Shown here: positions 22,952 through 53,021 of the stretch, piece by piece
Position numbering within the stretch: position 1 is the first letter of the stretch
How the letters are laid out: every line of letters starts with the position of its first letter
Origin: Bacilli bacterium
Lineage (GTDB): Bacteria > Bacillota_I > Bacilli_A > RF39 > UBA660
Assembly (NCBI GenBank): GCA_051872765.1
Contig: JBJEED010000031.1
Coordinates: 1-53,021, forward strand
Reading direction: 5' to 3'
Length of the DNA stretch: 53,021 nt
Notes under the pieces: generated by a model
What the model was told of the DNA's origin: nothing
The model's input: the letters and a program-made list of their open reading frames with translations, nothing else
The model's database searches: none
Translations under genes and position numbers: made by a program

Positions 22952-25900
22952 TTATTTTCTTTTCATAAACTTATTAAGTATTAATCCAAATGCAATTAAT
23001 ATTACCATAGATATTGCATAAAAATAATAATTTATTTTAGGTGACTTTTCTACATTTTCTACTTGTTCATCAATAATTTCTTTTTCTTTTTTAATAATGT
23101 TTATTATGTATACTACTTCTTTACCATCTTGACCTTTAATCTTTAATTCAGATTTAGTATTTTTTATATCTAAATTATCAATAGTCCTTGGTCCATATTC
23201 AGAAACAAATTCATTATTTTTATCACTAAGTACTGCATCAACTACTACTTTATCTACATTATTTTCTATCTCATAATCATAATAATAATTATCATTTTGT
23301 AAAGATATCTTTTCACCATTGATACTTAATTCAGATAAATTATTATCACTTGGTCTATTAACTATTAATTTATATACTCTACTACTTCCACTCTCAGCAA
23401 TAACATCAATATTAATTTCATTTGCTCCATAATTAATTGCTATATCACCTGTACCAGCAATATTTTTAACTCTTTTACTATTAGAAACAGCTTGTATATT
23501 TATATTATCTAATTTAGTAGTAATGCTAAAACTACTATTAGAACCAACGATAATTTCTTTATTATTTATTTTTATACTTTTTAGTGTATTGTCAGTATCA
23601 TATCTTGTAATGCTTAATGTATATATTTTCTTTTCTCCATTATTTGTCACTACTACATTAAAGGTATTCTTTCCAAATTCAAGTTTCTTTTCCCCTGTTC
23701 CATCTACTTTTGATGTAGTTGATACTGCTACTGCACTAATAGTAGTCTTATCTGAATTAACAACTAAATCATAAGTTAATTTTTCAGAATTAAAGTTAAT
23801 CTTTGCTCCTTTTACAGTTAAACTTTTTAACGATGGATTATTATTACTTTCGTTTTTAAGAAATAAAACATATTCATCTACTGAAGCGGAATATTTAATT
23901 GATATTATATATCCATTATTAACTTTTTCTTCTCTGCCTATCTTATTTTTATTATTATCATATAATGTGATAGTACCATTAGTAGTTATTTTATCTGCTA
24001 TACTACCAATAGTAGTTCCAGGTTTAATATCATTAATAATATTATTATATCTATCTACTAATAGTGAACTATCAAATGATATTTCTTTTTCTTCTTTCCA
24101 TATTGCTTTAACACTAGCGCTTTCATTTCCCATTGTAAATATATTATTGTTTACGCTACTTCCTTTTCCACTAACTTCCCATTTTACAAATGTATATCCA
24201 TCTCTTGTAATAGTAGGTAGTGTATATGTATATTCTCTTAATACATCTATAGTAGTACTTCCTGAATAATTTCCACCATTTGGATTTATTGTTAATTTAT
24301 ATTTTACTTCTTTAAATTTTCCATATATTTTATGGTTCGAATGCACTCTAACATTTGTTACTTTTGTTTTATAATCTGGATCTAAATACCAACCGTCAAA
24401 ATCATATCCTTTTTTATAAGGTGTTTGTATTTTTTCTGAATATTTATCATTATATTTTACAACTGTTCCTTTTGCAGGATATCCATCAACATAAGCAGAA
24501 ATACCATATTCTGCATCGTTATATACTTGAGTTGGTCTTAATACTGCAAATAAATTTGATGAAAATAATAAATGCTTTATAACTCTAAAACTACAATAAT
24601 AACTACCACCTGTATTTAAAAGATAATTACCTTCTCCATCAAATTTCTTTGATTCTTTACTGCATGTATCAAGACCATTTTTATTAAAACTAATTAATGT
24701 TGGATATCCATCTTTATCAAATGAAGTTACTAGATAATATTCAAGCTCGCTTGGATTAACTGTTGTTAAACTATAGTTTTGAGCTGTTCCTTCTCTTGAA
24801 TGATCAAAATTATCAATAAATTTATTAGATACAACAATTATATCTCCTATTTCTAAATATCTATTATGAATATATTTAATTCTTTTTTTATTTTCATTCC
24901 CAATTAATTTTTTACCACCATACATTCCATCCACTAGCATATTACTAATTGTATTTGTTTTTTCTTCATCTTTTTTAAAAAACGCACTAAGATTATATGC
25001 AGCACTTGTTCCAGACAAATATTGTGAATAATAACCATTCCAAGAATAAAATAATGAATTTATTATATTTTCACCAGTTAATTCACTTAAATCTATATGA
25101 AAATTGTTATAATAAATATATTTAATAAAATCTAAAGACGAAAAACTAGTTGCAGTATTAATGCTATCTTTACTCGTAATTTGATCCTTATCATTATGCT
25201 TATAATTTTTATTCTTAAATGTATTTATAGTATTCATCAAATTATTAACATCATTAGGATTAATTGTTCTGTTTACATTTAAACTAATTGTATTTAATTT
25301 TAAACTAATTGTATTTAATGAAGAAGATTTGTCATTATCTTTATATGATACTTCGAATTTACCTGCTTCTAATTTACTTGATACCGAACTATCTACAATT
25401 ACATTAAATGTTGGATATCTATCTGTTCCTTCACATGTAATTTCATTACTACTACTAGTTTTACATGTATATTTGCTTGGATATTTAATTATTCTTGTTC
25501 CTTCAGGTGCTGTAAATTTTACTATGAACTTTTTATTTTTAACATTATCATATGCATTTCCAGATGATATCCATTGTCTTTCTTTACTATCATCAGACAC
25601 ACAACCACTTTTATTTTTTGAACTATCAGAACAATAACCATATCCTCTTTTGTCTTCTAAACTTAATCCATAAGTAATAGTATCTCCTACATCTACAGAA
25701 TTATAAATTGATATTCCTCTTCCATCCTTTTTAACATATTGTTCTACTCTAGTTCCTGAAAAAGCAACTCTTGCTTTATCATTTTGAGTAATATTGTTAT
25801 TTGTACAAGTATTAGTATTGCCACAATATACATTAAGCGGTCTTATAATTGTTAAGTTTATTATTCTATTAGTATCACCTTCATTTTTATGTTTATTTTT

Positions 25901-26980
25901 TCTACTATTAAGATAATTTACTATACTACTTTCATATCTAATACTAAAAGAATCATATGAACCATCTACTCCCGTAGCATGAATAATACCCGAATCATTT
26001 GAATTTAAAACATCTTCAACATAAAACATAGCATGACCGGCTGATTTATATTGTATTTTTATTATATCTCCTTTTTGTAATAAATATTTTTCATTACCTT
26101 TAGTAAAATACTCTATAATAGAATTCCATTCATCTAAATATTTATTATAATTATTAGCATCTTTATAAGTTAAATTTTCAAAATTATAATTAAATACTAT
26201 TTCAGATTTATTATCTTTATCAATATATATTCCATCTTTACCTTTTTTAGAATTAATAATATCATATGCTTTTAATTCAGGACCGTCTAAAGCACTAGTA
26301 AACAGGCACTTAGTTCTATCTCCGTTATTTTGTGCTATGCAATTAGAAACTCTCGTTAGTATTCCAGTAGTAGCCCAAGCTCTACCATACTTAGTAATTG
26401 CATCATTAAATGTATCTAGACTACTTATTGCTCTAATTTTATCAGGTTTATAAATAATTTCACCATTTTCAGTAGTTTTAGTAATTTTAGTAGTATTTGC
26501 AGTACCATATAATGAATAAAACTCTGACATATTATATCCTAATACATTACTATATATCAAATAAGTAAATGCAGAGCAAGCAATATTATACATATTAGAA
26601 CGACTAACATCTTCAGGAGAAATATTTAAATTATCATAAAAAGTAGTTGACACTAGAGGATAAAATGATTTCTTAGAAACACAATTTGTGTTCTTTTCAT
26701 AATCTAATACGCAAGAATTATTATTACTAATATCAGGATATTTTACATCAGCATCTAATAAATATTGTTCATAATCTGAATAATAATTATTATAGTAATA
26801 ACTAAGAGCTGCCGAGATAAGCATTTTTTGTAAATCTTGTCTACTATATGTATTTGTTTCTGTTGCAACACTTCTATTAGAAATTAAACTAAAATAAAAT
26901 AATAATATTATAATTATCAATATAATAATTATTATAAAAAAGTATCTAAATTTTGTTATAAAATCTTTAATTTTTTTCAT
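22952..26980 (-). CDS. Large surface protein: papain/NlpC-like N-terminal region, InlB B-type repeats, cadherin-like beta-sandwich repeats, C-terminal TM anchor
   Basis: N- and C-terminal TM helices; KKGYDFDGWY and RDGYTFVKW repeats; three LKSL.V/I..Y.L.I.R modules; CSAFTY..GDII..GHAM. Confidence 0.7.
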   Translation of the reverse strand: MKKIKDFITKFRYFFIIIIILIIIILLFYFSLISNRSVATETNTYSRQDLQKMLISAALSYYYNNYYSDYEQYLLDADVKYPDISNNNSCVLDYEKNTNCVSKKSFYPLVSTTFYDNLNISPEDVSRSNMYNIACSAFTYLIYSNVLGYNMSEFYSLYGTANTTKITKTTENGEIIYKPDKIRAISSLDTFNDAITKYGRAWATTGILTRVSNCIAQNNGDRTKCLFTSALDGPELKAYDIINSKKGKDGIYIDKDNKSEIVFNYNFENLTYKDANNYNKYLDEWNSIIEYFTKGNEKYLLQKGDIIKIQYKSAGHAMFYVEDVLNSNDSGIIHATGVDGSYDSFSIRYESSIVNYLNSRKNKHKNEGDTNRIINLTIIRPLNVYCGNTNTCTNNNITQNDKARVAFSGTRVEQYVKKDGRGISIYNSVDVGDTITYGLSLEDKRGYGYCSDSSKNKSGCVSDDSKERQWISSGNAYDNVKNKKFIVKFTAPEGTRIIKYPSKYTCKTSSSNEITCEGTDRYPTFNVIVDSSVSSKLEAGKFEVSYKDNDKSSSLNTISLKLNTISLNVNRTINPNDVNNLMNTINTFKNKNYKHNDKDQITSKDSINTATSFSSLDFIKYIYYNNFHIDLSELTGENIINSLFYSWNGYYSQYLSGTSAAYNLSAFFKKDEEKTNTISNMLVDGMYGGKKLIGNENKKRIKYIHNRYLEIGDIIVVSNKFIDNFDHSREGTAQNYSLTTVNPSELEYYLVTSFDKDGYPTLISFNKNGLDTCSKESKKFDGEGNYLLNTGGSYYCSFRVIKHLLFSSNLFAVLRPTQVYNDAEYGISAYVDGYPAKGTVVKYNDKYSEKIQTPYKKGYDFDGWYLDPDYKTKVTNVRVHSNHKIYGKFKEVKYKLTINPNGGNYSGSTTIDVLREYTYTLPTITRDGYTFVKWEVSGKGSSVNNNIFTMGNESASVKAIWKEEKEISFDSSLLVDRYNNIINDIKPGTTIGSIADKITTNGTITLYDNNKNKIGREEKVNNGYIISIKYSASVDEYVLFLKNESNNNPSLKSLTVKGAKINFNSEKLTYDLVVNSDKTTISAVAVSTTSKVDGTGEKKLEFGKNTFNVVVTNNGEKKIYTLSITRYDTDNTLKSIKINNKEIIVGSNSSFSITTKLDNINIQAVSNSKRVKNIAGTGDIAINYGANEINIDVIAESGSSRVYKLIVNRPSDNNLSELSINGEKISLQNDNYYYDYEIENNVDKVVVDAVLSDKNNEFVSEYGPRTIDNLDIKNTKSELKIKGQDGKEVVYIINIIKKEKEIIDEQVENVEKSPKINYYFYAISMVILIAFGLILNKFMKRK

Positions 26981-28532: not shown

Positions 28533-30392
28533 TTAATTTATATTCCATTTTAATTTTGCATAATTCCAATTATGTTTTACTGCATCTGAACTAAGTTCAG
28601 TATTATATAATGCTAAATCATATAACTTTCCTGTAAATTTTAGTCCTCTTGTTGGTCTTAAATCCCCAATTGTTGCCATTTTATAATCAACTGGATTTTT
28701 TCCTGAACTAAATGATTTAAGAAGTTCTCCATTTATATAAACTTTTGTGCTACCCCCTCTTTTAGCTGTTACTTGTATATTCATTTTCTTTCCTTCATAT
28801 TTACTAATATTAAATGATATAAAACCTTGATTAGTAAGTTCATAATTTAAATTTCCATATGATTCTCCCTGATAATAAGAATATACATGCATATAATTTT
28901 TATAAAAGCCAATCCATGAGAGATATTTCATATTTTCTTGTGAAATAGCTATTATAGTTGCGGGAAATGACTTTCCAGGTTCTCCCTCTTGACTAACTGA
29001 ACCATCAACCGTCAGATATACTGAATAAGTATCTTTTACACTCATTGATTGAGCAATGTCTAATACAAGTGTTTCTTTTCCTACTCCAAGATAAAGTCCT
29101 TCTCCTGATGTATCATATTCTAATTTTTTATCACCAAAACATTCTGTATAAGAACAATAGCCTGTTCCATGTTGATTATCATAAGATGAATCGATAGGTT
29201 TAAAATCTCCATAATTTGTTAATGATGAATTTTCTTTTGATGAAATTGTAATATTACCATTATTATATACACCCGGATTTATAAATACATCAAAATCAAA
29301 GTATATTTTTTGAATATTCGTTTTTGATGCAAAATCCATTGTAAATTCATTTGTGCTATTATTGTAAAAATATATTCCTCCATTCAAGTATCCCTGATAT
29401 TTTTCTAACTCTGTCCCTTCTATTATTATTGGTGTATACACTTTTTCATTGATATTATTTTCCTTCATTTTAAGTTCATCTCTAAATATATTTTTGAACT
29501 TATATGTTGAATTACTATTATTTTTTACATAAACATTTAATGTCCCAACTGATGTATTTTTAGGAATAAATATCCCCGTTTGATTAAATGCTATTTTGGC
29601 ATTAGTTGATGATATAGCGTTTGTTATTATCATATCTGGATTTACTTTTGTAAATTTTATTTTATTTGAATATGGATATTTTACAATTATATCTTCATTA
29701 TTTAAATCCATTCCTAAATTTACTTCTGTATCTATTTTTAAACTATTTTTTTCATTCTCTTTTAATGTATTTATTGTTTCTTGTGACAAATACACAAATT
29801 CTATATTATCTTCTGTTTTTGGTTTTATAGTAAATTCTTTTAACACTATTCCTTTATATGACGCTATAACTTTTATATCATTTTCACTCATGTTTGTCAT
29901 TATAATTGGTACTGCATTTGTTGAATCATATATTTCATATTCTGTATCATATACAAATATTTGTCCTGTTGATACATTATCTTTTATATAGTCCATTTTT
30001 ATTATTGGATTATCTTCTTCTAAATCTACAACTACTCCACTTGATGTTCCATCACCTTTGTATTGATAATAAAATTGTCCATCTGTTACCTCTAGATACT
30101 TTATTGTTCCATCTGAATTCATTTCAGCATAGTATTCTAATTCTTTACCTACCATGTCCAGTTTATTTTCTCCAAATGATGAATATATTTCTGGAATATT
30201 TTGCCCATTTAATTGATACTTATATGTTTCCTTTTCTAATTCTGTTTTTACTATTTCTACTTCACTATTAAATGTTCTTTCTTTTGATTGATTATATAAT
30301 TTTATTATATTTGGCAATGTTATTATAACTAACAATGCTAAAATTGATATTACTGCTAATAATTCTACAAGAGTAAATCCATTTTTCTTCAT
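28533..30392 (-). CDS. Large type IV pilin-like protein with C-terminal LamG/ConA-like domain
   Basis: Prepilin motif KKNG/FTLVELLAVISILALL; C-terminal KVYINGEL..TIG..FTGKLYDLALYNTELS; start at ATG 30392 after SD AGGTGG. Confidence 0.85.
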   Translation of the reverse strand: MKKNGFTLVELLAVISILALLVIITLPNIIKLYNQSKERTFNSEVEIVKTELEKETYKYQLNGQNIPEIYSSFGENKLDMVGKELEYYAEMNSDGTIKYLEVTDGQFYYQYKGDGTSSGVVVDLEEDNPIIKMDYIKDNVSTGQIFVYDTEYEIYDSTNAVPIIMTNMSENDIKVIASYKGIVLKEFTIKPKTEDNIEFVYLSQETINTLKENEKNSLKIDTEVNLGMDLNNEDIIVKYPYSNKIKFTKVNPDMIITNAISSTNAKIAFNQTGIFIPKNTSVGTLNVYVKNNSNSTYKFKNIFRDELKMKENNINEKVYTPIIIEGTELEKYQGYLNGGIYFYNNSTNEFTMDFASKTNIQKIYFDFDVFINPGVYNNGNITISSKENSSLTNYGDFKPIDSSYDNQHGTGYCSYTECFGDKKLEYDTSGEGLYLGVGKETLVLDIAQSMSVKDTYSVYLTVDGSVSQEGEPGKSFPATIIAISQENMKYLSWIGFYKNYMHVYSYYQGESYGNLNYELTNQGFISFNISKYEGKKMNIQVTAKRGGSTKVYINGELLKSFSSGKNPVDYKMATIGDLRPTRGLKFTGKLYDLALYNTELSSDAVKHNWNYAKLKWNIN

Positions 30393-30614
30393 ATATTCCA
30401 CCTATTTTAATTCTACATTATTTTAATTTTTATATCAACAAAAATTCACGAATTAGTTTTTTAAATATCTTATTTTTTAAATCAATTATTTTTTCTAATT
30501 ATATTCAAAATTTGCTTGTCTTATTGAAATAGTATAGTTTGCTAATTTACATGTATAAATAAAACTCTTTTTATAGACACTATAGTTCAAATATCACTTG
30601 ATTTTGTAAAAACA

Positions 30615-43900: not shown

Positions 43901-45607
43901 TTATACCTCCCTTTTTTGTGAATCGATAAATTCTTTAAATATTGTACTACTTTTCTCAAGTTCCTCATAAGTACCAATATCTTCGATTTTACCTTCTTCT
44001 ATTACGATTATTCTATCACAATCTTTAATAGTACCTACCCTTTGAGTAATTAATATAACCATTTTATCATTATATTCTTTCTTTATTGCTTCTCTTATTC
44101 TTTTATCAGTTATATAATCAACTGCACTAAAAGAATTATCAAAAAGTAAACATTCTCCTCCACTTAGAAGTGCTCTTGCAATAGACATTCTTTGTTTTTG
44201 ACCACCAGATAAATTGACTGCTGATTGCTCAACCTTATAATCATACCCTTCTTCATTATTATCAATAATATCATGTATAGCAGCAGTATGCATTACTTCA
44301 TCTATCTCACTTATATTGTATTTATTACCAAATGTAAGATTTTCTCTTATTGAACCTCTAAATAACAATGATTTCTGTGGAGTATATGCAAAAATATCTC
44401 TTAATGATTCTATATCATATTCCCTAATATCAATTCCATTTATAAGTATTTCTCCACTTGTTGCATCTATATGTCTTAAAAGTAAATTTACAATAGTAGT
44501 CTTTCCACTTCCTGAAGAACCAATTATTCCAATACTTTCCCCCTTAACAATTTTAAAATTTATATTTTTAAGCATTAAATTACGAGCATTTTCATATTTA
44601 AAGCATACATCTCTAAATTCTATACTTTCAAGAGTTTTTAATTTAATACTACCTGTATTTTTAATAGATGGTTTGACATTTAATATTTCATTTATTCTCT
44701 TAAATGAAACCATTACTCTTGGGATATTTAATATTATCACAAGTAACATTAAAAAGCTTACTAAAACAGTTGCCATATATTGAATAAATGCCATCATCGA
44801 TCCTATTTCTAATTCATTAGAACTAATAAATCCTGTTGAAACATATACTATTATTATAGTTGCAATATTAATAATTAAAATCATCATAGGTTGAACAAGA
44901 TATATTATTTTATTTAAAAATATATTTAATTTCTTATTTTCATCATTCACTTTATCGAATCTATTTTTAAAAAAATCTTGTTTATTGAATGCTTTAATAA
45001 CTCTTAAACCATATAATATTTCTCTAGATGTTGCATTTATTTTATCTAACAATTGCTGTAATTTCTCAAATTTAGGATATACTATTGAAAATATTATTAT
45101 AAGTCCAAGCATAAGTACACAAAGAGATACAACTACTATAGGAACAAGAGATGGTGCCGTTAGATATCCCATAATAGCGGCTCCTATTCCCATTATTGGA
45201 GCAAAAATTATAAGTTTTAATCCAAATGAAAATGTTGATGTAATATTACTTACATTATTTGTACTTCTAGTAATAAGAGTTGAAACTCCAAATTCATCTA
45301 TTTCTCTTTTACTAAAACTATTTATTTTTTTATATAAAGCATCTCTTATATTATAACCATAATAATTAGAAAATTTTGATGTGCTATACACAACTAATAT
45401 ATTAGATAATAAAGCAAAAATTGTAACTATAGTCATTAGTATAGTTTTATTTATAATAAAATCTTTATTACTATTTACAATGCCAATATCAATAATATCA
45501 CTCATTATATTAGGTAAATACAGTTCACAAATAACTTGAATTATTGAAAATATTAACATAAGTAAAATATATTTTCTAAGTCCTTTTGTTAACTTAAATA
45601 ATTTCAT
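43901..45607 (-). CDS. ABC exporter, fused permease/ATPase (heterodimer subunit A, degenerate site)
   Basis: GSSGSGKT, LSGGQKQR, degenerate FDNSFSAVD and TQR switch. Confidence 0.93.
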   Translation of the reverse strand: MKLFKLTKGLRKYILLMLIFSIIQVICELYLPNIMSDIIDIGIVNSNKDFIINKTILMTIVTIFALLSNILVVYSTSKFSNYYGYNIRDALYKKINSFSKREIDEFGVSTLITRSTNNVSNITSTFSFGLKLIIFAPIMGIGAAIMGYLTAPSLVPIVVVSLCVLMLGLIIIFSIVYPKFEKLQQLLDKINATSREILYGLRVIKAFNKQDFFKNRFDKVNDENKKLNIFLNKIIYLVQPMMILIINIATIIIVYVSTGFISSNELEIGSMMAFIQYMATVLVSFLMLLVIILNIPRVMVSFKRINEILNVKPSIKNTGSIKLKTLESIEFRDVCFKYENARNLMLKNINFKIVKGESIGIIGSSGSGKTTIVNLLLRHIDATSGEILINGIDIREYDIESLRDIFAYTPQKSLLFRGSIRENLTFGNKYNISEIDEVMHTAAIHDIIDNNEEGYDYKVEQSAVNLSGGQKQRMSIARALLSGGECLLFDNSFSAVDYITDKRIREAIKKEYNDKMVILITQRVGTIKDCDRIIVIEEGKIEDIGTYEELEKSSTIFKEFIDSQKREV

Positions 45608-45617
45608 TCTTTTCTCC

Positions 45618-46700
45618 TTATAAAATCATATTTATTATTTCATTCATTATATATATCTTATCTTCAGGAATATAAAGATAACCATTTTTATTAATAATAA
45701 GTTTTTTTGAAATTACTTCTTCAAACTTAAATTCACTAAATATATCTGTATTAAATTTATTTTTAAAATTTTCAATGCTTATTCCATCTAACTTTCTAAG
45801 TCCAAGTATTACTTCATTTTCCATTTCTTCACGAATTGAAACTAAAAATTCATCAAGTCTATATTCACCTTTTATATATTTATTATAACTTCTAGTATTT
45901 TCATATCTCATATCATTTATATAGCCATGACTTCCAAGACCAAATCCATAATATTCTTGATTATTCCAATAAGTTAAATTATGCTTACTTTCTTTTTTAC
46001 TCTTGGCAAAATTACTAACTTCATAATGATAATAACCATTTTGTTTTAATTTTTTACATATATATTTATACATTTTATAATCTAATTCTTCACTTACACT
46101 CTTAACTTTTTTATTATAAAGTGCTGTATGTTTTTCAATTATTAATGAATATGTACTAATATGATCCACATCTAGTTTTAATATTGATTTTATATCACTT
46201 TTAAGTATTGACATATTCTCAGTAGGTAAAGCATATATTAAATCAACATTAATATTATCAAATCCATATTGTTTACATAATTTAATATTTTTAATAATAT
46301 TTTTTTTATCATGCTTTCTATTTAAAAATTTAAGATTATATTTATTAAAACTCTCAACACCAATGCTAATTCTATTAACATTATTTTCTTTTAAAATATT
46401 AAGTAATTCATCATCTATATCATTTACATTACATTCAAATGTTATTTCACAATTTTCTACTTTATTAAATACCTTAAGTATACTAAATAATTTTTTTAAA
46501 TTAGATTTGCTTAGAGAAGATGGAGTTCCACCACCTATATACAATGTATCAATAACATCTTTTTCATAGAATTTATTTATTTCTTTTTCTAAAGAATCCA
46601 AATAATTAGATGCCCATGATTCATTATTCAAATACTTACAAAAATCACAATAAGAACAAATACTATTGCAAAATGGAATATGAATGTAAACACTTCTCAT
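45618..46700 (-). CDS. hemW: Radical SAM heme chaperone HemW (HemN-like)
   Basis: YIHIPFCNSICSYCDF, GGGTPS, YEVSNFA, HNLTYW. Confidence 0.93.
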   Translation of the reverse strand: MRSVYIHIPFCNSICSYCDFCKYLNNESWASNYLDSLEKEINKFYEKDVIDTLYIGGGTPSSLSKSNLKKLFSILKVFNKVENCEITFECNVNDIDDELLNILKENNVNRISIGVESFNKYNLKFLNRKHDKKNIIKNIKLCKQYGFDNINVDLIYALPTENMSILKSDIKSILKLDVDHISTYSLIIEKHTALYNKKVKSVSEELDYKMYKYICKKLKQNGYYHYEVSNFAKSKKESKHNLTYWNNQEYYGFGLGSHGYINDMRYENTRSYNKYIKGEYRLDEFLVSIREEMENEVILGLRKLDGISIENFKNKFNTDIFSEFKFEEVISKKLIINKNGYLYIPEDKIYIMNEIINMIL

Positions 46701-46718
46701 ATATACTACCTCAGTATA

Positions 46719-46747
46719 ATTATACTAATTTTTATATTGATTTGCAA
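46719..46747 (-). promoter_or_regulatory. sigmaA-type promoter for hemW
   Basis: TTGCAA-17 nt-TATAAT. Confidence 0.65.
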
Positions 46748-46779
46748 AGTATTTTAAATACAAAAAATAAAGTAAAAAA

Positions 46780-47988
46780 TTACTTTATTTTAAGTTCAAA
46801 ACCATTTTTATCAACTGGTAGTAATTGTGGTATATCAAAATTATTTTCTGAATATTCTCTTAAAACCCTATCTCTTCTTAATATTATTAAACCTTTTCTT
46901 AAGATTTGTCTTATTCTAGATGAAGAAACATTAAGCTCTTTAGCAATTTCTTCATCAGTATATTTTTTATCAGAGCAATATTTCATAACTATTGCTTTTC
47001 TAGTTCTATCATCTAATCTATCATTATTATATAACGCTCTTCTTATATCTAATATTTTTGCTTTTCTTAAATAATCGTCTTCTATATTAACTCTCTCATC
47101 ACTTAAAATATCACTTAATGTAAACTCTTCATTATCACTTATAGTGGTTGAAATTGATGTAATACTTGGAAGAGATTTACAAAACTCCACTCTACTTTCT
47201 TGCATATTTAAATCTTTTGCTATTTGCTTGTTACTTGGTTCAACATCATGATTATTTATTTTATATTCTTCTATATATGAACAAATTTTATTGTAATCAG
47301 CGTTTACTCTTTCTGGAATTATAATGCTTCTTTTTTCAACCGTGTGTCCTCTTGTTATAGCTTGTCTAATCCACCAAGATGCATATGTTGAAAATTTATA
47401 TCCCAATGAAACATCAAACTTTTCTATTGCTTTAATTAATCCAATATTGCCATCTTGAATAGCATCTTCAAATGAATATCCTTTATTAGCATAATATTTA
47501 GCAATGGAAACAACTAATTTTAAATTATGATTTATTAAATCATTATATGCATCAGTATCTCCAGACTTAATTCTATCAAATAATTCTACTTCTTCTTCTC
47601 TTTCTAAAATATCAAAATTTCCAATTTCTTTTAAATAAATACTTATCACATCTAAATTAGATTTATCATTATATTTTTTCTCACTAGAAAACTTTAAATC
47701 TTTATTATTTTTATAAACACTAATTATTAATTCTACATTTTCATCAATTACTTCAAAATCACTAAGTTCTATTATAGCATCTATCATTGAACATAACAAT
47801 AAGCTTGAATTTAATATCTCATCAGCATCTAGTTCTCCTAATTTAAAATTATTATTTTTAAAGAATTGAATTAATTTTTTATAATTTTTTATTTGACTAG
47901 ATTTACTAGGTTCTTTATCAAAATTACTTTCAATAAAATCAACTATTATTCTATTTTGAATTTTATTTAACTTTAAATCCTCTTTCAT
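46780..47988 (-). CDS. RpoD-like sigma70 factor, array member 5
   Basis: YLKEIG..L.REEE, NLKLVVSIAK, QDGNIGLIKAIEKFD..GYKFSTYASWWIRQAITR, region 4 SSSRIRQI; start ATG 47988. Confidence 0.93.
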   Translation of the reverse strand: MKEDLKLNKIQNRIIVDFIESNFDKEPSKSSQIKNYKKLIQFFKNNNFKLGELDADEILNSSLLLCSMIDAIIELSDFEVIDENVELIISVYKNNKDLKFSSEKKYNDKSNLDVISIYLKEIGNFDILEREEEVELFDRIKSGDTDAYNDLINHNLKLVVSIAKYYANKGYSFEDAIQDGNIGLIKAIEKFDVSLGYKFSTYASWWIRQAITRGHTVEKRSIIIPERVNADYNKICSYIEEYKINNHDVEPSNKQIAKDLNMQESRVEFCKSLPSITSISTTISDNEEFTLSDILSDERVNIEDDYLRKAKILDIRRALYNNDRLDDRTRKAIVMKYCSDKKYTDEEIAKELNVSSSRIRQILRKGLIILRRDRVLREYSENNFDIPQLLPVDKNGFELKIK

Positions 47989-47989
47989 A

Positions 47990-49198
47990 CTAATTATCAC
48001 CTCTATATTTATAAGAATAATTTAATTGTGCTGGTTTTGTTTGCTCTTGATGAGAAATATTATCACAATCAAACATTGATAATTTTTTATCACTTCTAAC
48101 TCTATCAATTATTATTTTTTTAACTTCACTAACATATTGATGAGATATACCCATAGCATCAGCAGTTTCTTTATCACTATATTGATTATATACCATCATT
48201 CTAAATATTTCTTTTTGTTTTTTAGTTGGTTTTTTTGCTTTATCAAATTCTTTACTAAAATCTTGAGCAAATATTCTATTTATAACTCTATCTTCTAAAC
48301 TTTCTTCATCACACGAAACGACTGAATAAAGAGTATCTTCATTTTCTTCACTGATATATGTATCTAGAGAAATTGCATCATCAATAATATTTTTTATAAA
48401 TTTTACTGTATCTATACTCATATTTGTTAGTTTTGATAATTCCTCATTTGTAGGTTCTTTACCATATATTTTTCTATATTCATCTATTGCTGCTGATATT
48501 CTAGCTCTATTTGCCTCATTATTAACTGATGTTTTTATAATTCTATTCATTATTACATATCTTTTTATACTAGAATATATTGCAGGATATACAAATGTAG
48601 AAAACTTATATCCTAAATTGCCATCAAATTTTTCAACAGCCTTAATAAGTGCTATATTTCCCTCTTGCACTAAATCCATTAAAGGAATTGAAGAATAATC
48701 AAACTTTCTAGCTATTGAAACAACTAATCTTAAATTGTGCTTTATTAATTCATCACGAGCTTTCACATCACCATTTTTAATTCTTTGATAAAGCTTAAAC
48801 TCATCTTCTCTTGATAATATTTTATAACCCTTTATTTCCAATAAATACATAGTAGTTGAATCATTTTTATTACTATTAACATATTCACCTATTAACTGAT
48901 TATAATTACTATCAAAACTCTCTTTTTCACATTCACTAATCATTTTATAAGCATCAAATAAGTTATTTGTACCGTATAAATGATTAATATCTTTTACTTT
49001 ATTTACTACACTTATCATCCTATTTAACTTAGGGCTCAAACTCAATAGAATAGTAGCATCTTCAATACTAATTGAATATTTTATTTCATTCAAAAAAACA
49101 AGTAATTTTTTATAATTCTCAAGTTGTATAGAATTACTCATTTTATCTTTAAAATTATTATTTACAAACTCAATTATTAATTTATTTACTTTACTCAT
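47990..49198 (-). CDS. RpoD-like sigma70 factor, array member 4 (most divergent)
   Basis: NLRLVVSIARK, DLVQEGNIALIKAVEKFD..GYKFSTF, region 4 GISHQYVSE; start ATG 49198. Confidence 0.9.
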   Translation of the reverse strand: MSKVNKLIIEFVNNNFKDKMSNSIQLENYKKLLVFLNEIKYSISIEDATILLSLSPKLNRMISVVNKVKDINHLYGTNNLFDAYKMISECEKESFDSNYNQLIGEYVNSNKNDSTTMYLLEIKGYKILSREDEFKLYQRIKNGDVKARDELIKHNLRLVVSIARKFDYSSIPLMDLVQEGNIALIKAVEKFDGNLGYKFSTFVYPAIYSSIKRYVIMNRIIKTSVNNEANRARISAAIDEYRKIYGKEPTNEELSKLTNMSIDTVKFIKNIIDDAISLDTYISEENEDTLYSVVSCDEESLEDRVINRIFAQDFSKEFDKAKKPTKKQKEIFRMMVYNQYSDKETADAMGISHQYVSEVKKIIIDRVRSDKKLSMFDCDNISHQEQTKPAQLNYSYKYRGDN

Positions 49199-49227
49199 AT
49201 TTTTCACCCCCCTTTTTAAACTTAATA

Positions 49228-50331
49228 TTATATTAATGATTTTGCTTTTTTTAGTTTCATTACAGCACTAGTTTCTATACTTTTTACTCTTTGTTTTGTA
49301 ATTCCATTTAAGAATTGTCCAATTTCTTTAAAACTATATCCATACACATATTTATATAACAATACTTTTTGTTCAGTTTCACTTATTTTTGCCTTTTCAT
49401 AAAGTGATTCTAAAGTTTTAGCAGCATAGATTCGTTGAATTAATTCTTCTTCTAAATCTGTGTCTGATACAATATAATCACCTAAAGTACCATCATAATC
49501 TGGCTGTATTTTATCATCTATACTTAATGTTCCTATTAATGCTCTTTCTAATATACTGATTGTTTGAATTGAATATCCACTTAAAGTAGATAATTCTTTT
49601 ATTGTTGGATTTCTAAAATATTTATTTTTAAATTCTCTTTTGATTACACCCAATTTTTCATTTCTCTCCCAAGCAGCAACTGGAATTCTAATTGTCCTTG
49701 ATGTATTGTCTATATATCTTTTCATTTTTTGTCTTATAGAGTATGTAGCATATGTTGAAAACTTAAATCCTCTAGTTTCATCAAATGTAGAAACACAATT
49801 AATAAGTCCAATATTTCCTTCTTGTATCAAATCCTCAATAGCAATACCTGAATTTGCAAATCTTTTTGCATTATTAACCACTAATTTTAAATTATGATTA
49901 ATAATTTTTTTTCTTGCTAATTCATTACCTTTATTAGCTAATTCAAATAGTTCCTTCTCTTCTTCTCTACTTAATACTTTAAAGCCTTTAATTTGTTGGA
50001 TATACATATTAACTGAGCTTCCTAACTCACAATCAATATCAAAATCCAAATCAAATTCATCATCATATAAAGTAAACATAGACTTTATACAAGAAGGGAC
50101 ATCTAATTTAATTGATCTAACAGCATAAATAATATCTAATAATGACGGAATATTTTTAATTAAGTATTCTGCTTCAAATTCATTAATTACATATTTTTTT
50201 AATTCTAAAAATTCAATTAATTTTTTATAATTTTTTATATATGTTGAATTATTATTATTATCTTTTTCAAATTCTAAATTAATAAAATTAATAATTTTAT
50301 TTAGTTTATCTTTATCAATTACTGTTTTCAT
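49228..50331 (-). CDS. RpoD-like sigma70 factor, array member 3
   Basis: NLKLVVNNAKR, DLIQEGNIGL, RGFKFSTYAT, RTIRIP, TKQRVKSIE; start ATG 50331 or 50343. Confidence 0.92.
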   Translation of the reverse strand: MKTVIDKDKLNKIINFINLEFEKDNNNNSTYIKNYKKLIEFLELKKYVINEFEAEYLIKNIPSLLDIIYAVRSIKLDVPSCIKSMFTLYDDEFDLDFDIDCELGSSVNMYIQQIKGFKVLSREEEKELFELANKGNELARKKIINHNLKLVVNNAKRFANSGIAIEDLIQEGNIGLINCVSTFDETRGFKFSTYATYSIRQKMKRYIDNTSRTIRIPVAAWERNEKLGVIKREFKNKYFRNPTIKELSTLSGYSIQTISILERALIGTLSIDDKIQPDYDGTLGDYIVSDTDLEEELIQRIYAAKTLESLYEKAKISETEQKVLLYKYVYGYSFKEIGQFLNGITKQRVKSIETSAVMKLKKAKSLI

Positions 50332-50360
50332 ATTTCCCCCCATTTTTTATTTATTTAAAG

Positions 50361-51545
50361 CTATTTAATCATTCTTCTTAATCCTAATCGTGAAATATAT
50401 ATATTTCTTAATTTATCTGACCCTCTTTTTTCTATTTGTCTTATTCTTTCCTTAGTTAAATTAAATTCTTGTGCTACTTCATCCAATGTTTTTTTATCAC
50501 AATCATCATCACCAATTCTAAGTCTTAAAATAGTTTTCTCTCTTTCATTTAAAACATTTATTTCACTTAAAATATCACTAATACTAGAATATATTAATCT
50601 ATCAATTACAATATCCTCAACGTTACAAGAATCATCCGCTTTATCTTCTAATAATGATTCTAATTCATCTTCTCCTCTTTCGCCTACTGTAGTATTTGAA
50701 CTAACAGTATCAACACAATGATTCTTAACATCTTTAATAGTATTTACAGAAAGTCCTGTTAATAAAGATAATTCTTTATTATTTGGTTCCCTACCATTTG
50801 CGCAAATGAAAGAATCTGAAGCTTTTTTTACTTTTAATATTTTTTCTTGCATATGAATTGGTATTCTAATTACTTTACTTGTATTTTGAATTGCTCTTTG
50901 TATTTTATGTTTAATACATATGTAAGCATAAGTTGAAAATTTATTTCCACGTCTATAATCATATGTATCAACTGCTCTTATTAATCCATCATTTCCCTCT
51001 TGCACTAAATCTTCTATATCTAAATCACACCCTACATACTTCTTAGCTATAAAAATTACTAATCTTAAGTTATGATTTATAATTCTTTCACGAGCTTTAA
51101 CATCGCCATTTTCATATTTTTTAAATAATTCTACTATCTCTTCATTGCTTAATAATTTATATTCAGAAATATCCTTTAAATATAATTTAAAGGATGATAT
51201 ATTTTCTAAACTACTTTCATTAAAAACTAAATCATTTTCAGAATCATTTTCTATTTCACTTACTTCTTTATAATCAAACAATCCTTTATCTAGTTGTTCA
51301 GATTTATTAGCATATTTTCTTACAACTTTCATACAAACATTTAATTTTTGAGATTTAGAAAATAATAATTCTGCATCTAATTCACTTATTTTATAATTAT
51401 TTGCTTTTAAAAATATTAATAATTTTTTATAATTCTTCATTTGTTCAGAATCGAATCTACTTTCATTAAAATTACTATTAATATATTTTATTATTTCTTC
51501 TATTTCATCTAAACTTAACATTTTTATTGTATCTTCTTTATTCAT
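50361..51545 (-). CDS. RpoD-like sigma70 factor, array member 2
   Basis: NLRLVIFIAKKY, DLVQEGN.GLIRAV, KFSTYA, IRIPIHM, TLDEVA..TKERIRQIE. Confidence 0.93.
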   Translation of the reverse strand: MNKEDTIKMLSLDEIEEIIKYINSNFNESRFDSEQMKNYKKLLIFLKANNYKISELDAELLFSKSQKLNVCMKVVRKYANKSEQLDKGLFDYKEVSEIENDSENDLVFNESSLENISSFKLYLKDISEYKLLSNEEIVELFKKYENGDVKARERIINHNLRLVIFIAKKYVGCDLDIEDLVQEGNDGLIRAVDTYDYRRGNKFSTYAYICIKHKIQRAIQNTSKVIRIPIHMQEKILKVKKASDSFICANGREPNNKELSLLTGLSVNTIKDVKNHCVDTVSSNTTVGERGEDELESLLEDKADDSCNVEDIVIDRLIYSSISDILSEINVLNEREKTILRLRIGDDDCDKKTLDEVAQEFNLTKERIRQIEKRGSDKLRNIYISRLGLRRMIK

Positions 51546-51572
51546 TTTATTTCCCCCCTATCTTTTATCATA

Positions 51573-52853
51573 TTATTTTTTTCTTACATAATGAAACTTA
51601 TTTCCAATCTTCACCTTTTTATAAGAATGCAAATATTTGTCTGGAACAAGATTCAAAAAATCTGTGTTTTTTCTTAATTTTATAAATGCTTTATCTTCTA
51701 TTTGTTTTACTCTTTGTCTTGTAATATTATACATTTTTCCTATATAAACACCATTATAACCAAAAGCATACTTTAAATATAATATTTCTTTTTCTCTTTG
51801 TGTTAAAACATCAGTATTTAATATAAAGTTTCTTATCTCTCTTGACATTATATTTGAAATTACTTTTGTCTCAACAGATACATTACCATCAGGAATAAAA
51901 TCTAATACTGTTTCATCTTCATCTTCTCCAACATACTCATTTAGACTAGAAACATCTTTATAATGTCTTTTAAATATATCAACCTGTTCTATACTAATAT
52001 TAAATTGCATAGATATTTGTTTATCAGTTGGATAAGTGCCATTTTTACTAAAATATTCTAATATATACTTTTGAACATTTCTCATTTTATCATATGTATT
52101 ATTTGGTATTCTTATAAGTCTATTTGTCTTTTTTATAGCAACTAGTATAGTTTGTCTAATCCACCAAGTTGCATATGTAGAAAACTTAAATCCTCTAGTT
52201 TCATCAAATTTTTCAACTGCCTTCATTAAACCAATATTTCCCTCTTGAATTAAATCATTTAAAGCTAAATTAAAGTTATTATATTTTTTTGCAACATTAA
52301 CAACATATTTTAAATTATGGTTTACAATTTCTTCAAAAGCACTACTATCTCCAGCATGATATCTTCTAAACATTTCAATTTCTTGCTCAGGTGTATAAAC
52401 TTCCATATCTTTAATTTCGTTATAATAAAGATCTGTTAAATTTAAATCTCTTTTACCTCTACTAGTCATTGTAGAAGTCTTAGAATTACGATTTAATACT
52501 CTTTCTTCAAAATTTTTTATATCAAAAACTTCAAATAATCCCGTTACTAATGAATTTTCTTCTATACCATGCTTACATACTACTTTCATTGTATTTAATA
52601 ATTTAGGGCATCTAGAAAATAAAACATCAGCATCTGCTTCATTAATACTACATTGCATCAACCTTAAATGTTTTAATAAAAGCCTATAATTATCTAATTG
52701 CTTACTTTCAACTTCTAAAGGACTAAAACTAGTATTTATAAATTCTACCAATTCATCTATTTGTTGATGATTTAAAGAAAAAACTAAATCATTTTCAAAA
52801 TCAACATCTAAATCACTCGTATAATCAATATACGATAAATCACTATCCATCAT
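51573..52853 (-). CDS. RpoD-like sigma70 factor, array member 1
   Basis: NLKYVVNVAKKY, DLIQEGNIGLMKAVEKFD..RGFKFSTYATWWIRQ, TRQRVKQIE. Confidence 0.93.
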   Translation of the reverse strand: MMDSDLSYIDYTSDLDVDFENDLVFSLNHQQIDELVEFINTSFSPLEVESKQLDNYRLLLKHLRLMQCSINEADADVLFSRCPKLLNTMKVVCKHGIEENSLVTGLFEVFDIKNFEERVLNRNSKTSTMTSRGKRDLNLTDLYYNEIKDMEVYTPEQEIEMFRRYHAGDSSAFEEIVNHNLKYVVNVAKKYNNFNLALNDLIQEGNIGLMKAVEKFDETRGFKFSTYATWWIRQTILVAIKKTNRLIRIPNNTYDKMRNVQKYILEYFSKNGTYPTDKQISMQFNISIEQVDIFKRHYKDVSSLNEYVGEDEDETVLDFIPDGNVSVETKVISNIMSREIRNFILNTDVLTQREKEILYLKYAFGYNGVYIGKMYNITRQRVKQIEDKAFIKLRKNTDFLNLVPDKYLHSYKKVKIGNKFHYVRKK

Positions 52854-52925
52854 AACTTATTCCCCCCCTAAATATATATTAAATTATTCTCTATTCCTTC
52901 TTATACCCCTTGTCATTTCGCGTAG

Positions 52926-52954
52926 ATTATATCATACTTTTTGAAAAAAGTCAA
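52926..52954 (-). promoter_or_regulatory. sigmaA-type promoter heading the sigma array
   Basis: TTGACT-17 nt-TATAAT with extended -10 TG. Confidence 0.85.
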
Positions 52955-53021
52955 CTTTTGTTCGTATTTGATAGAGTAAAATAGAATTGGGATTGCATAA
53001 AAAAAGAAAGACCATGTTAAA

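Follow-up and report, generated by a model that had tools for sequence, protein, structure and literature searches.

A predicted domain, hitherto undescribed, at the position of region 1.1 in five tandem sigma-70 factors from an uncultured Bacilli bacterium

Why would a bacterium carry, in addition to its housekeeping sigma factor, five sigma-70 genes in a row that all begin with the same N-terminal module, and what is this module if it is not region 1.1? The question is raised by a stretch of 53,021 nucleotides (the window), which is one entire contig (JBJEED010000031.1) of the assembly GCA_051872765.1 of a Bacilli bacterium (GTDB lineage RF39; UBA660; 1.44 Mb in 94 contigs, 78% complete, G+C content of 24.6%). 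The last 6 kb of the window consist of five co-oriented minus-strand open reading frames (ORFs) encoding sigma factors, S1 to S5. A sequence-only reading of the window had claimed that they share an unrecognised N-terminal domain of about 70 residues in place of region 1.1, followed by an acidic linker and region 1.2, which would define a new sigma subfamily. Our analysis indicates, as judged from sequence comparisons, that this domain, here called the N-domain, has not been described before and fills the region 1.1 slot of sigma-70 factors. The locus is best explained as a single operon of SigA-derived alternative sigma-70 factors, each with a lineage-specific, independently folding five-helix copy of the N-domain. 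The five genes are as follows.

51573..52853, minus strand: sigma paralog S1, 426 aa, with an acidic N-terminal tail, the N-domain, a linker and regions 1.2-4
50361..51545, minus strand: sigma paralog S2, 394 aa
49228..50343, minus strand: sigma paralog S3, 371-aa ORF; likely ATG start at 50331, giving 367 aa
47990..49207, minus strand: sigma paralog S4, 405-aa ORF; likely ATG start at 49198, giving 402 aa
46780..48000, minus strand: sigma paralog S5, 406-aa ORF; likely ATG start at 47988, giving 402 aa

The five N-terminal motifs quoted in the sequence-only reading were all found in the translations of these ORFs, aligned in register. When full-length S1 was modelled with AlphaFold2 from an alignment of the five paralogs, five helices were predicted in residues 29-117, with a block predicted local distance difference test (pLDDT) score of 73-89, and the linker at residues 112-138 was disordered (pLDDT <50). 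The N-domain alone, modelled with 28 sequences from the window and from genomes of the same genus, gave a mean pLDDT of 93.3 and a predicted template modelling (pTM) score of 0.83, with helices at model residues 8-21, 28-45, 51-60, 62-73 and 80-100. These models show a real, confidently predicted five-helix domain of about 90 residues, and thus the module is longer than the 70 residues first proposed. Its positions in the five genes, from the S1 model and from alignment, are given below with the corresponding matches of a hidden Markov model (HMM).

52500..52775, minus strand: N-domain of S1 (residues 27-118), five helices by AlphaFold2; HMM match 52497-52778
51246..51518, minus strand: N-domain of S2 (residues about 10-100), by alignment; HMM match 51231-51524
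50044..50310, minus strand: N-domain of S3, by alignment; HMM match 50032-50331
48914..49195, minus strand: N-domain of S4, by alignment; HMM match 48914-49195
47701..47973, minus strand: N-domain of S5, by alignment; HMM match 47674-47973

The conserved positions, in S1 numbering and over 92 members, are mostly hydrophobic (I35, F38, I39, F43, L53, L59, which is kept in 89/92, F62, L63, L78, L79 and L85), and they are accompanied by the polar positions Q52 (55/92), N55 (73/92), K57 (52/92), K58 (49/92) and S82 (53/92). Averaged over all pairs of the five paralogs, identity amounts to 31.3% across the N-terminal module and 33.5% across the core, and therefore the N-terminal likeness reflects paralogy of a real domain rather than chance. 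Orthologue pairs gave a similar picture, with identities for the N-domain and the core of 90/92, 79/79, 73/79, 99/98 and 87/86%; in three of these pairs the linker has changed more rapidly. By these comparisons, the N-domain is constrained as strongly as the sigma core. It sits directly upstream of region 1.2, to which a flexible linker of 10-30 residues joins it. The claim that this linker is acidic holds for S2 and S3 (net charge -5 and -3), weakly for S4 (-1), and fails for S1 and S5 (+4 and +1). The net charge of the N-domain itself is -6, +1, 0, +5 and -5 in S1 to S5, and ranges from -12 to +5 (mean -3.6) over 52 sequences.

Behind the linker, all five proteins are sigma-70 factors. Sigma70_r2 was matched in each at 55-72 bits, above the Pfam gathering score; Sigma70_r4 exceeded 24.1 bits in four, with S4 at 19.3 bits; and region 3 was above the cut-off in four of the five. 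Region 1.2, which had been said to follow the linker in all paralogs, was detected in four and lies below detection in the remaining one. The best NCBIfam matches were models of the RpoD/RpoS type, all far below equivalog cut-offs; when the housekeeping equivalog models NF006666, NF004208 and TIGR02393 were compared, the best scores were, for instance, 223.6 bits against a cut-off of 572 for NF006666 and 210.3 against 354 for TIGR02393. In public records, two orthologues are named, respectively, "RNA polymerase sigma factor RpoD/SigA" and "sigma-70 family RNA polymerase sigma factor". The same genome has a separate canonical dnaG-sigA operon. The paralogs are 34-40% identical to the genome's own SigA, alignable only from region 1.2 onward, and 30-36% identical to one another over their full length, N-terminus included. 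A maximum-likelihood tree of 80 sigma factors, made by a quick method, grouped the 22 SigA sequences in one clade with a support of 100. Around this clade the domain-bearing sigma factors were spread over many long branches, and the backbone joining them was weak; all of them were closer to SigA than to the six shorter sigma factors of the genome, and each of S1 to S5 paired with its own close orthologue. The median terminal branch was 0.59 changes per column, as in a fast-evolving family.

The promoter-recognition regions of the five differ. The WWIRQ sequence of regions 2.3/2.4, as found in SigA, is kept in S1 and S5 only, and the tryptophan dyad of region 2.3 is lost in S2 (ICIKH), S3 (YSIRQ) and S4 (PAIYS). 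Region 4.2 also varies among the five and is strongly diverged in S4 (ISHQYVSEVKK), which is the most diverged paralog in both places. It is because of these differences that the five paralogs probably read different promoters, and the loss of the dyad in S2-S4 together with region 4.2 of S4 suggests an unusual mode of -10 recognition or melting. Besides SigA and the five paralogs, the genome has further short sigma factors (212-256 aa) on contigs 32, 90 and 9, all without the N-domain; the 13 region 2 matches in this assembly represent many sigma factors for a genome of about 1.4-1.8 Mb. In addition, contig 60 (L005:41-1159, plus strand) encodes a 372-residue protein in which an N-terminal half of the extracytoplasmic function (ECF) sigma type is followed by an apparent transmembrane segment, recognised by eye, and a fused C-terminal part of about 170 residues; from its sequence, this would be a sigma/anti-sigma-like single chain.

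Is the N-domain a form of region 1.1? The sequence-only reading had answered that it does not look like region 1.1 of SigA, and this is borne out by the comparisons made here. While the SigA of the genome matches the region 1.1 family PF03979 at E 4.6e-11, none of the five paralog N-termini matches it at E<=10 (gathering score 22.5 bits), and it is absent from the families listed at E<=10 for the 28 N-domain sequences. When the genome was searched in six frames at E<=1, only the true SigA on contig 15 and three weak matches came up, none of these in the five genes. When the N-domain was compared by hhalign with 22 aligned region 1.1 sequences from SigA genes of the same class, the probability was 0.87% with 52 N-domain sequences and 0.95% with 92, as against 95.9-97.9% when three subgroups of region 1.1 were made to find one another as positive controls. 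The first 65 residues of the 22 SigA proteins are uniformly acidic, with a net charge of -2 to -16 (mean -8.9). Because the charge of the N-domain is variable and often near neutral, DNA mimicry of the region 1.1 kind is unlikely, at least for S2-S4. By the HMM, profile and charge tests that were run, the N-domain is not a member of the region 1.1 family. Its position is nevertheless that of region 1.1, directly N-terminal to region 1.2 and joined to it by a flexible linker. The phrase "in place of region 1.1" is thus apt as a description of position, and less so as a statement of separate origin, for a faint similarity to region 1.1 remains.

This similarity takes several forms. The only profile-profile alignment obtained, of 18 columns and present in both hhalign runs, matches helix 2 of the N-domain (NYKKLIxFLxxNxIxI) with the helix that closes region 1.1. 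The N-domain HMM touches this same helix, with the register unchanged, in four primary sigma factors (HMM positions 32-54; domain E 0.0014-0.07 in the 18-sequence set). Moreover, two of the 28 N-domains are colinear over about 85 residues with positions 11-100 of NF004565 (E 0.0018 and 0.009), a 501-residue sigma model whose true members in our sample of the class are two genomes of 0.7-0.8 Mb that read TGA as a codon. The N-termini of these members gave hhalign probabilities of 7% against region 1.1 and 1.1% against the N-domain. In-frame TGA codons lead us to infer that the class is the one to which the TGA-reading small genomes belong. Since the faint similarity falls in a consistent register, descent of the N-domain from region 1.1 keeps a low probability. 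No region 1.1 chain was present among the Foldseek matches shown for the PDB or among the 50 best rows of VIA-align, a result that carries no weight on whether the two folds differ.

The N-domain was not recognised by searches for other families either. The first 110-140 residues of each paralog matched no Pfam family even at E<=10. A sequence profile search of the PDB with the N-domain gave a best E of only 0.069, Foldseek gave a best E of 1.6 against the PDB and of 0.87 against BFVD, so that no phage relative was found, and searches of PHROGs and PADLOC returned nothing for the N-domain. Look-alikes in the ESM Atlas scored no higher than 0.81, which is the chance level, and the one Sigma70_r1_1 cluster noted among them, which ranks 19th (0.78), counts as a lead only. 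The Pfam family CH_2 was matched by four of the 28 N-domains, at best with E 0.0052 and below the cut-off, and was rejected, since the fold searches brought up no fold of the calponin-homology type. Taken together, these searches show an N-domain that is, to the sensitivity of the methods, unrecognisable as any other described family or solved fold. In the portions of text that a full-text literature search brought up, no such domain was described; a preprint mentions three sigA paralogs in Turicibacter sanguinis, in a passage that does not discuss their domains.

Where else does the N-domain occur? At E<=1e-3, an HMM built from the five N-termini retrieved 75 representatives from a set of 1.84 billion proteins, and 15 of these reached E<=1e-10. 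When 74 of these were scanned with Pfam, 51 had sigma-70 domains behind the N-domain match, 21 were fragments of 55-188 residues without a Pfam match, and two, namely a repeat protein and part of a peptidase, were false positives. No other architecture was present among the 74, and the genome itself has the five copies only and no stand-alone copy. These results, in which the HMM found no fusion beyond sigma-70, show the N-domain, within the reach of the HMM, to occur solely on sigma-70 proteins. Genome scans located it in 14 of the 24 other genomes sampled from the same genus, frequently as two or three tandem copies, and in 16 of 149 further genomes from elsewhere in the family, these 16 belonging to many different genera; it was absent from the one genome of the other sampled family of the order. 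The sole match in 16 genomes of other families (G035, E 0.0062) was spurious, as it lay outside any sigma gene. We therefore agree with the proposal that the N-domain defines a subfamily: the representatives and the genome scans place it on a distinct set of sigma-70 factors, and by its distribution it is the mark of a distinct sigma subfamily, so far seen in only one family of uncultured, small-genome, low-G+C bacteria. Narrower searches found few relatives: a word-indexed search with residues 1-115 of S2 returned S2 itself and one 77% relative only, and an S2-based search for related loci returned one 99% copy, in a metagenome-assembled genome, and one unrelated sigma core. The locus was present in DNA runs labelled pig gut or anaerobic digester, and no RNA run is among those listed for it. 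Contigs from four DNA runs showed the array to be colinear in related strains, one contig spanning 45500-49683 with 346 differences and another 49846-52319; the many joints seen in this comparison link the conserved cores of different paralogs.

In the other genera, the N-domain matches lie in frames of 353-1363 aa. All 18 frames from 16 loci contain sigma-70 core motifs by eye, and all six that were tested with Pfam are sigma-70 factors; two weak matches (G209 and G133) fall outside the 16 loci that were read. The usual layout is a pre-domain of about 85 residues, the N-domain, region 1.2 at 15-35 residues further on, and regions 2-4. In many of these proteins there follows a long C-terminal stretch built of repeats, each about 75 residues in length and partly like region 4. 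The N-domain keeps its slot 15-35 residues before region 1.2 even in sigma factors of 500-1363 aa with a pre-domain. The location of the domain at the extreme N-terminus, as first described, is therefore true of the five paralogs and not of their relatives in other genera, and because of this architecture the constant feature is a place immediately upstream of region 1.2 rather than an N-terminal one. Giant sigma-70 proteins with this layout (790-1363 aa) are encoded at L065:959-5047 (minus strand), L068:670-4302 (plus), L066:541-3219 (plus), L059:1016-3604 (plus) and L067:60-2429 (minus). They contain up to about eight tandem modules of about 75 residues, with a consensus like SIYEYFxxYSKEEVDKAIEKLPEKDxEILHKRYGEDLxNP and partial matches to Sigma70_r4_2 (74 bits summed for the protein of L065), and they close with a final conserved module, LSxKEAVIISLKLGYIDGKYF.

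Signals of transcription and translation at the locus are consistent with one operon. A G-rich Shine-Dalgarno sequence precedes every one of the five sigma genes, and because of its spacing the likely starts of S3, S4 and S5 are the internal ATGs at 50331, 49198 and 47988. The lengths of orthologues agree with these revised starts (P0006, 366 aa, for S3; P0004, 402 aa, for S4; P0005, 402 aa, for S5), and the intergenic gaps become 27, 29, 29 and 1 nt, the ATG of S5 being one base past the stop codon of S4. Two sites flank the genes.

52926..52954, minus strand: promoter-like site TTGACT-17-TATAAT with an extended -10 TG, about 70 nt upstream of S1
46762..46791, minus strand: 12-bp hairpin rich in A and U, with a U run behind it, that overlaps the stop codon of S5

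The upstream site has 11 of 12 consensus matches and the top score in 45500-53021, and it is to be taken as a consensus match only, because in this AT-rich background 75 such sites were found against 71.6 expected. The hairpin has a folding free energy of -9 kcal/mol and a z-score of -3.6, and one of 200 shuffled sequences folded equally well; a terminator scanner based on G+C gave no match there. The hairpin is likely the end of the five-gene operon, and the next gene, a hemW-type gene of the radical S-adenosylmethionine (SAM) family, is preceded by a promoter-like site of its own.

What, then, could the N-domain do? It sits in the slot that region 1.1 holds in the housekeeping SigA of the same genome, and its hydrophobic core and a polar patch (Q52, N55, K57/K58 and S82) are kept across paralogs and genera while the promoter-recognition regions diverge. 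For this reason, its target would be one common to all paralogs, on which it would act as a module in the region 1.1 slot. The likeliest target would be the RNA polymerase core, with the N-domain occupying or gating the DNA channel, or else the DNA-binding domains of the sigma factor itself, with the N-domain autoinhibiting free sigma; both have been proposed for region 1.1, and here they would operate without the chemistry of an acidic DNA mimic. We give about even odds to the proposal that the N-domain gates the polymerase channel or autoinhibits free sigma. Several observations weigh against it: the charge of the N-domain is near neutral or variable, unlike the acidity of region 1.1; the fold searches are compatible with a distant relation between the two; the quick tree does not set the N-domain family apart from SigA as one clade; and the model of full-length S1 has a pTM of 0.30, so that no confidence attaches to its interdomain arrangement. 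A complex prediction that paired the N-domain with residues 139-405 of S1, its core, run without controls, gave a score of 0.00 and is evidence neither way.

The similarity to region 1.1 could also mean that the N-domain is a very diverged region 1.1 that lost its middle helix, gained three C-terminal helices and kept its function, which is a question of origin and overlaps with the readings of function. This would account for the shared slot and tether to region 1.2, for the closer kinship of the paralogs with SigA than with the remaining sigma factors that the genome encodes, for the pairing of helix 2 with the last helix of region 1.1 in one register by both hhalign and HMM, and for the two N-domains that align with NF004565. 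We nevertheless consider it unlikely, given an hhalign probability of about 1% where subgroups of region 1.1 from the same class reach 96-98%, the absence of any PF03979 match among the 28 sequences at E<=10, the 1.1% obtained against the N-termini of NF004565 members, the five helices predicted over about 90 residues and the lack of uniform acidity. The sequence-only reading had favoured a docking handle for a shared trans-acting partner, such as an anti-sigma-like inhibitor, a proteolysis adaptor or an activator. A conserved polar patch on a scaffold that otherwise conserves its hydrophobic core (92 sequences) would suit such a handle, the same domain on every paralog of the operon would suit a single common regulator, and no anti-sigma gene was seen beside the arrays. 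However, ten loci in eight genomes of the same genus have no conserved neighbour gene, neither the genome nor the 75 representatives hold a stand-alone copy or another fusion, and no partner candidate emerged, all of which makes docking a rather doubtful reading. That the shared N-terminus is a leftover of duplication or a spacer without a role of its own was already disfavoured and seems very improbable, even in a family that evolves as fast as this one (a median of 0.59 changes per column at the end branches), as paralogs with only 30-36% identity keep the N-domain as well as the core (31.3% versus 33.5%), orthologues do the same while the linker changes faster in three of five pairs, the domain persists in no fewer than 16 genera and in different architectures, and its fold is predicted with high confidence. 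A more inclusive proposal, namely that a structurally new module took the region 1.1 slot in an expanded SigA-derived clade and provides one control point, by channel gating or by docking of a shared regulator, without DNA-mimic chemistry, is offered tentatively, at rather less than an even chance.

The surroundings of the arrays were compared as well. No conserved partner gene lies beside them, and their neighbours vary from genome to genome (hemW, lepA, an ATP-binding cassette (ABC) transporter and further sigma genes without the N-domain). Sigma-like genes that flank arrays of the same genus include L047:454-1173 (plus strand), L048:1-983 (minus) and L050:5499-6662 (plus), two of which are without the N-domain and one of which has an N-terminus that the N-domain HMM does not match. 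One relative has a lone domain-bearing sigma gene (L052:2618-3700, plus) with a hemW-type gene immediately downstream, an arrangement also seen in the window, and in another an array is located directly upstream of a GTPase gene that is lepA/EF4-like by its N-terminal sequence (L049:5955-7501, plus). The arrays thus seem to occupy a neighbourhood that is otherwise one of housekeeping genes. The window itself has ordinary chromosomal genes, among them der, ftsW, mraY, holA, proS, ppdK, tdk, an xerC/D-type gene, comEC, comEA and genes for ABC exporters. Elsewhere in the window, positions 22952-26980 (minus strand) encode a 1342-residue protein with a Listeria-Bacteroides repeat and InlB B-repeat-like and cadherin-like domains, and near it, at 28533-30401 (minus), a 622-residue protein starts with a prepilin-type N-terminal methylation motif. 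The segment 34011-38750 (minus) holds an XerC/D-like tyrosine recombinase beside several small ORFs without Pfam matches, a protein of the metallo-beta-lactamase fold and a YhcG/DUF1016 PDDEXK nuclease; lying between tdk and comEC, it may represent a small island.

No part of the primary sigma factors is less well understood than region 1.1. The paralogs belong to a natural family of alternative sigma factors in which its slot is filled by a different, well-folded domain, and with several of them in each genome beside a canonical SigA, the two can be compared directly. If the N-domain gates DNA binding or channel entry without acidity, acidity is not the sole route to the job of region 1.1; if it binds a common partner, it would provide a new mode by which an entire group of sigma factors is controlled together. 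That sigma factors should have multiplied in such reduced genomes is unexpected in itself.

Among known systems, the sigma factor MzaA of the MZA anti-phage system (NF041931; PADLOC PDLC02203) resembles the paralogs in being a sigma-70 factor with a large non-canonical N-terminal part, and it is the sole PADLOC family matched by all five. However, only the sigma core aligns (profile positions 417-658 of 683 and 459-716 of 726), the N-domain matches nothing in it, and membership was rejected, with 100.8-209.1 bits against a cut-off of 800 and the N-terminal part of MzaA, of about 420-470 residues, unmatched. Sigma E and sigma K of sporulating Firmicutes are likewise Firmicute sigma factors that are extended at the N-terminus. 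The leaders of these pro-sigma factors are short cleaved propeptides, in contrast to the conserved, folded domain of about 90 residues and the linker of the paralogs, which scored 82.9-100.9 bits with the SigK models TIGR02846 and NF004471 (cut-offs 298.65 and 252) and 79.3 bits with the SigE model NF006158 (cut-off 339); the view that the N-domain is no such leader is therefore supported. With Group 1 and Group 2 sigma-70 factors (RpoD/SigA-like and RpoS-like), the paralogs share regions 1.2, 2, 3 and 4, but they fall far below the equivalog cut-offs, three of the five lack the WW dyad of region 2.3, region 4.2 is diverged, and five of them stand in tandem in one predicted operon with a different N-terminal domain. 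The closest comparison is with region 1.1, which is thought to act as an acidic DNA mimic; to our knowledge, alternative sigma factors are generally described as being without a domain of this kind. Both it and the N-domain are small and all-helical, of comparable size, and precede region 1.2 on a flexible linker in SigA-like proteins. They differ in that the N-domain has no match to the region 1.1 HMM, a profile probability of about 1%, five predicted helices over about 90 residues and a charge that runs from -12 to +5 instead of being uniformly acidic, and in that it is found on alternative paralogs, whereas the housekeeping SigA of the same genome retains a canonical region 1.1.

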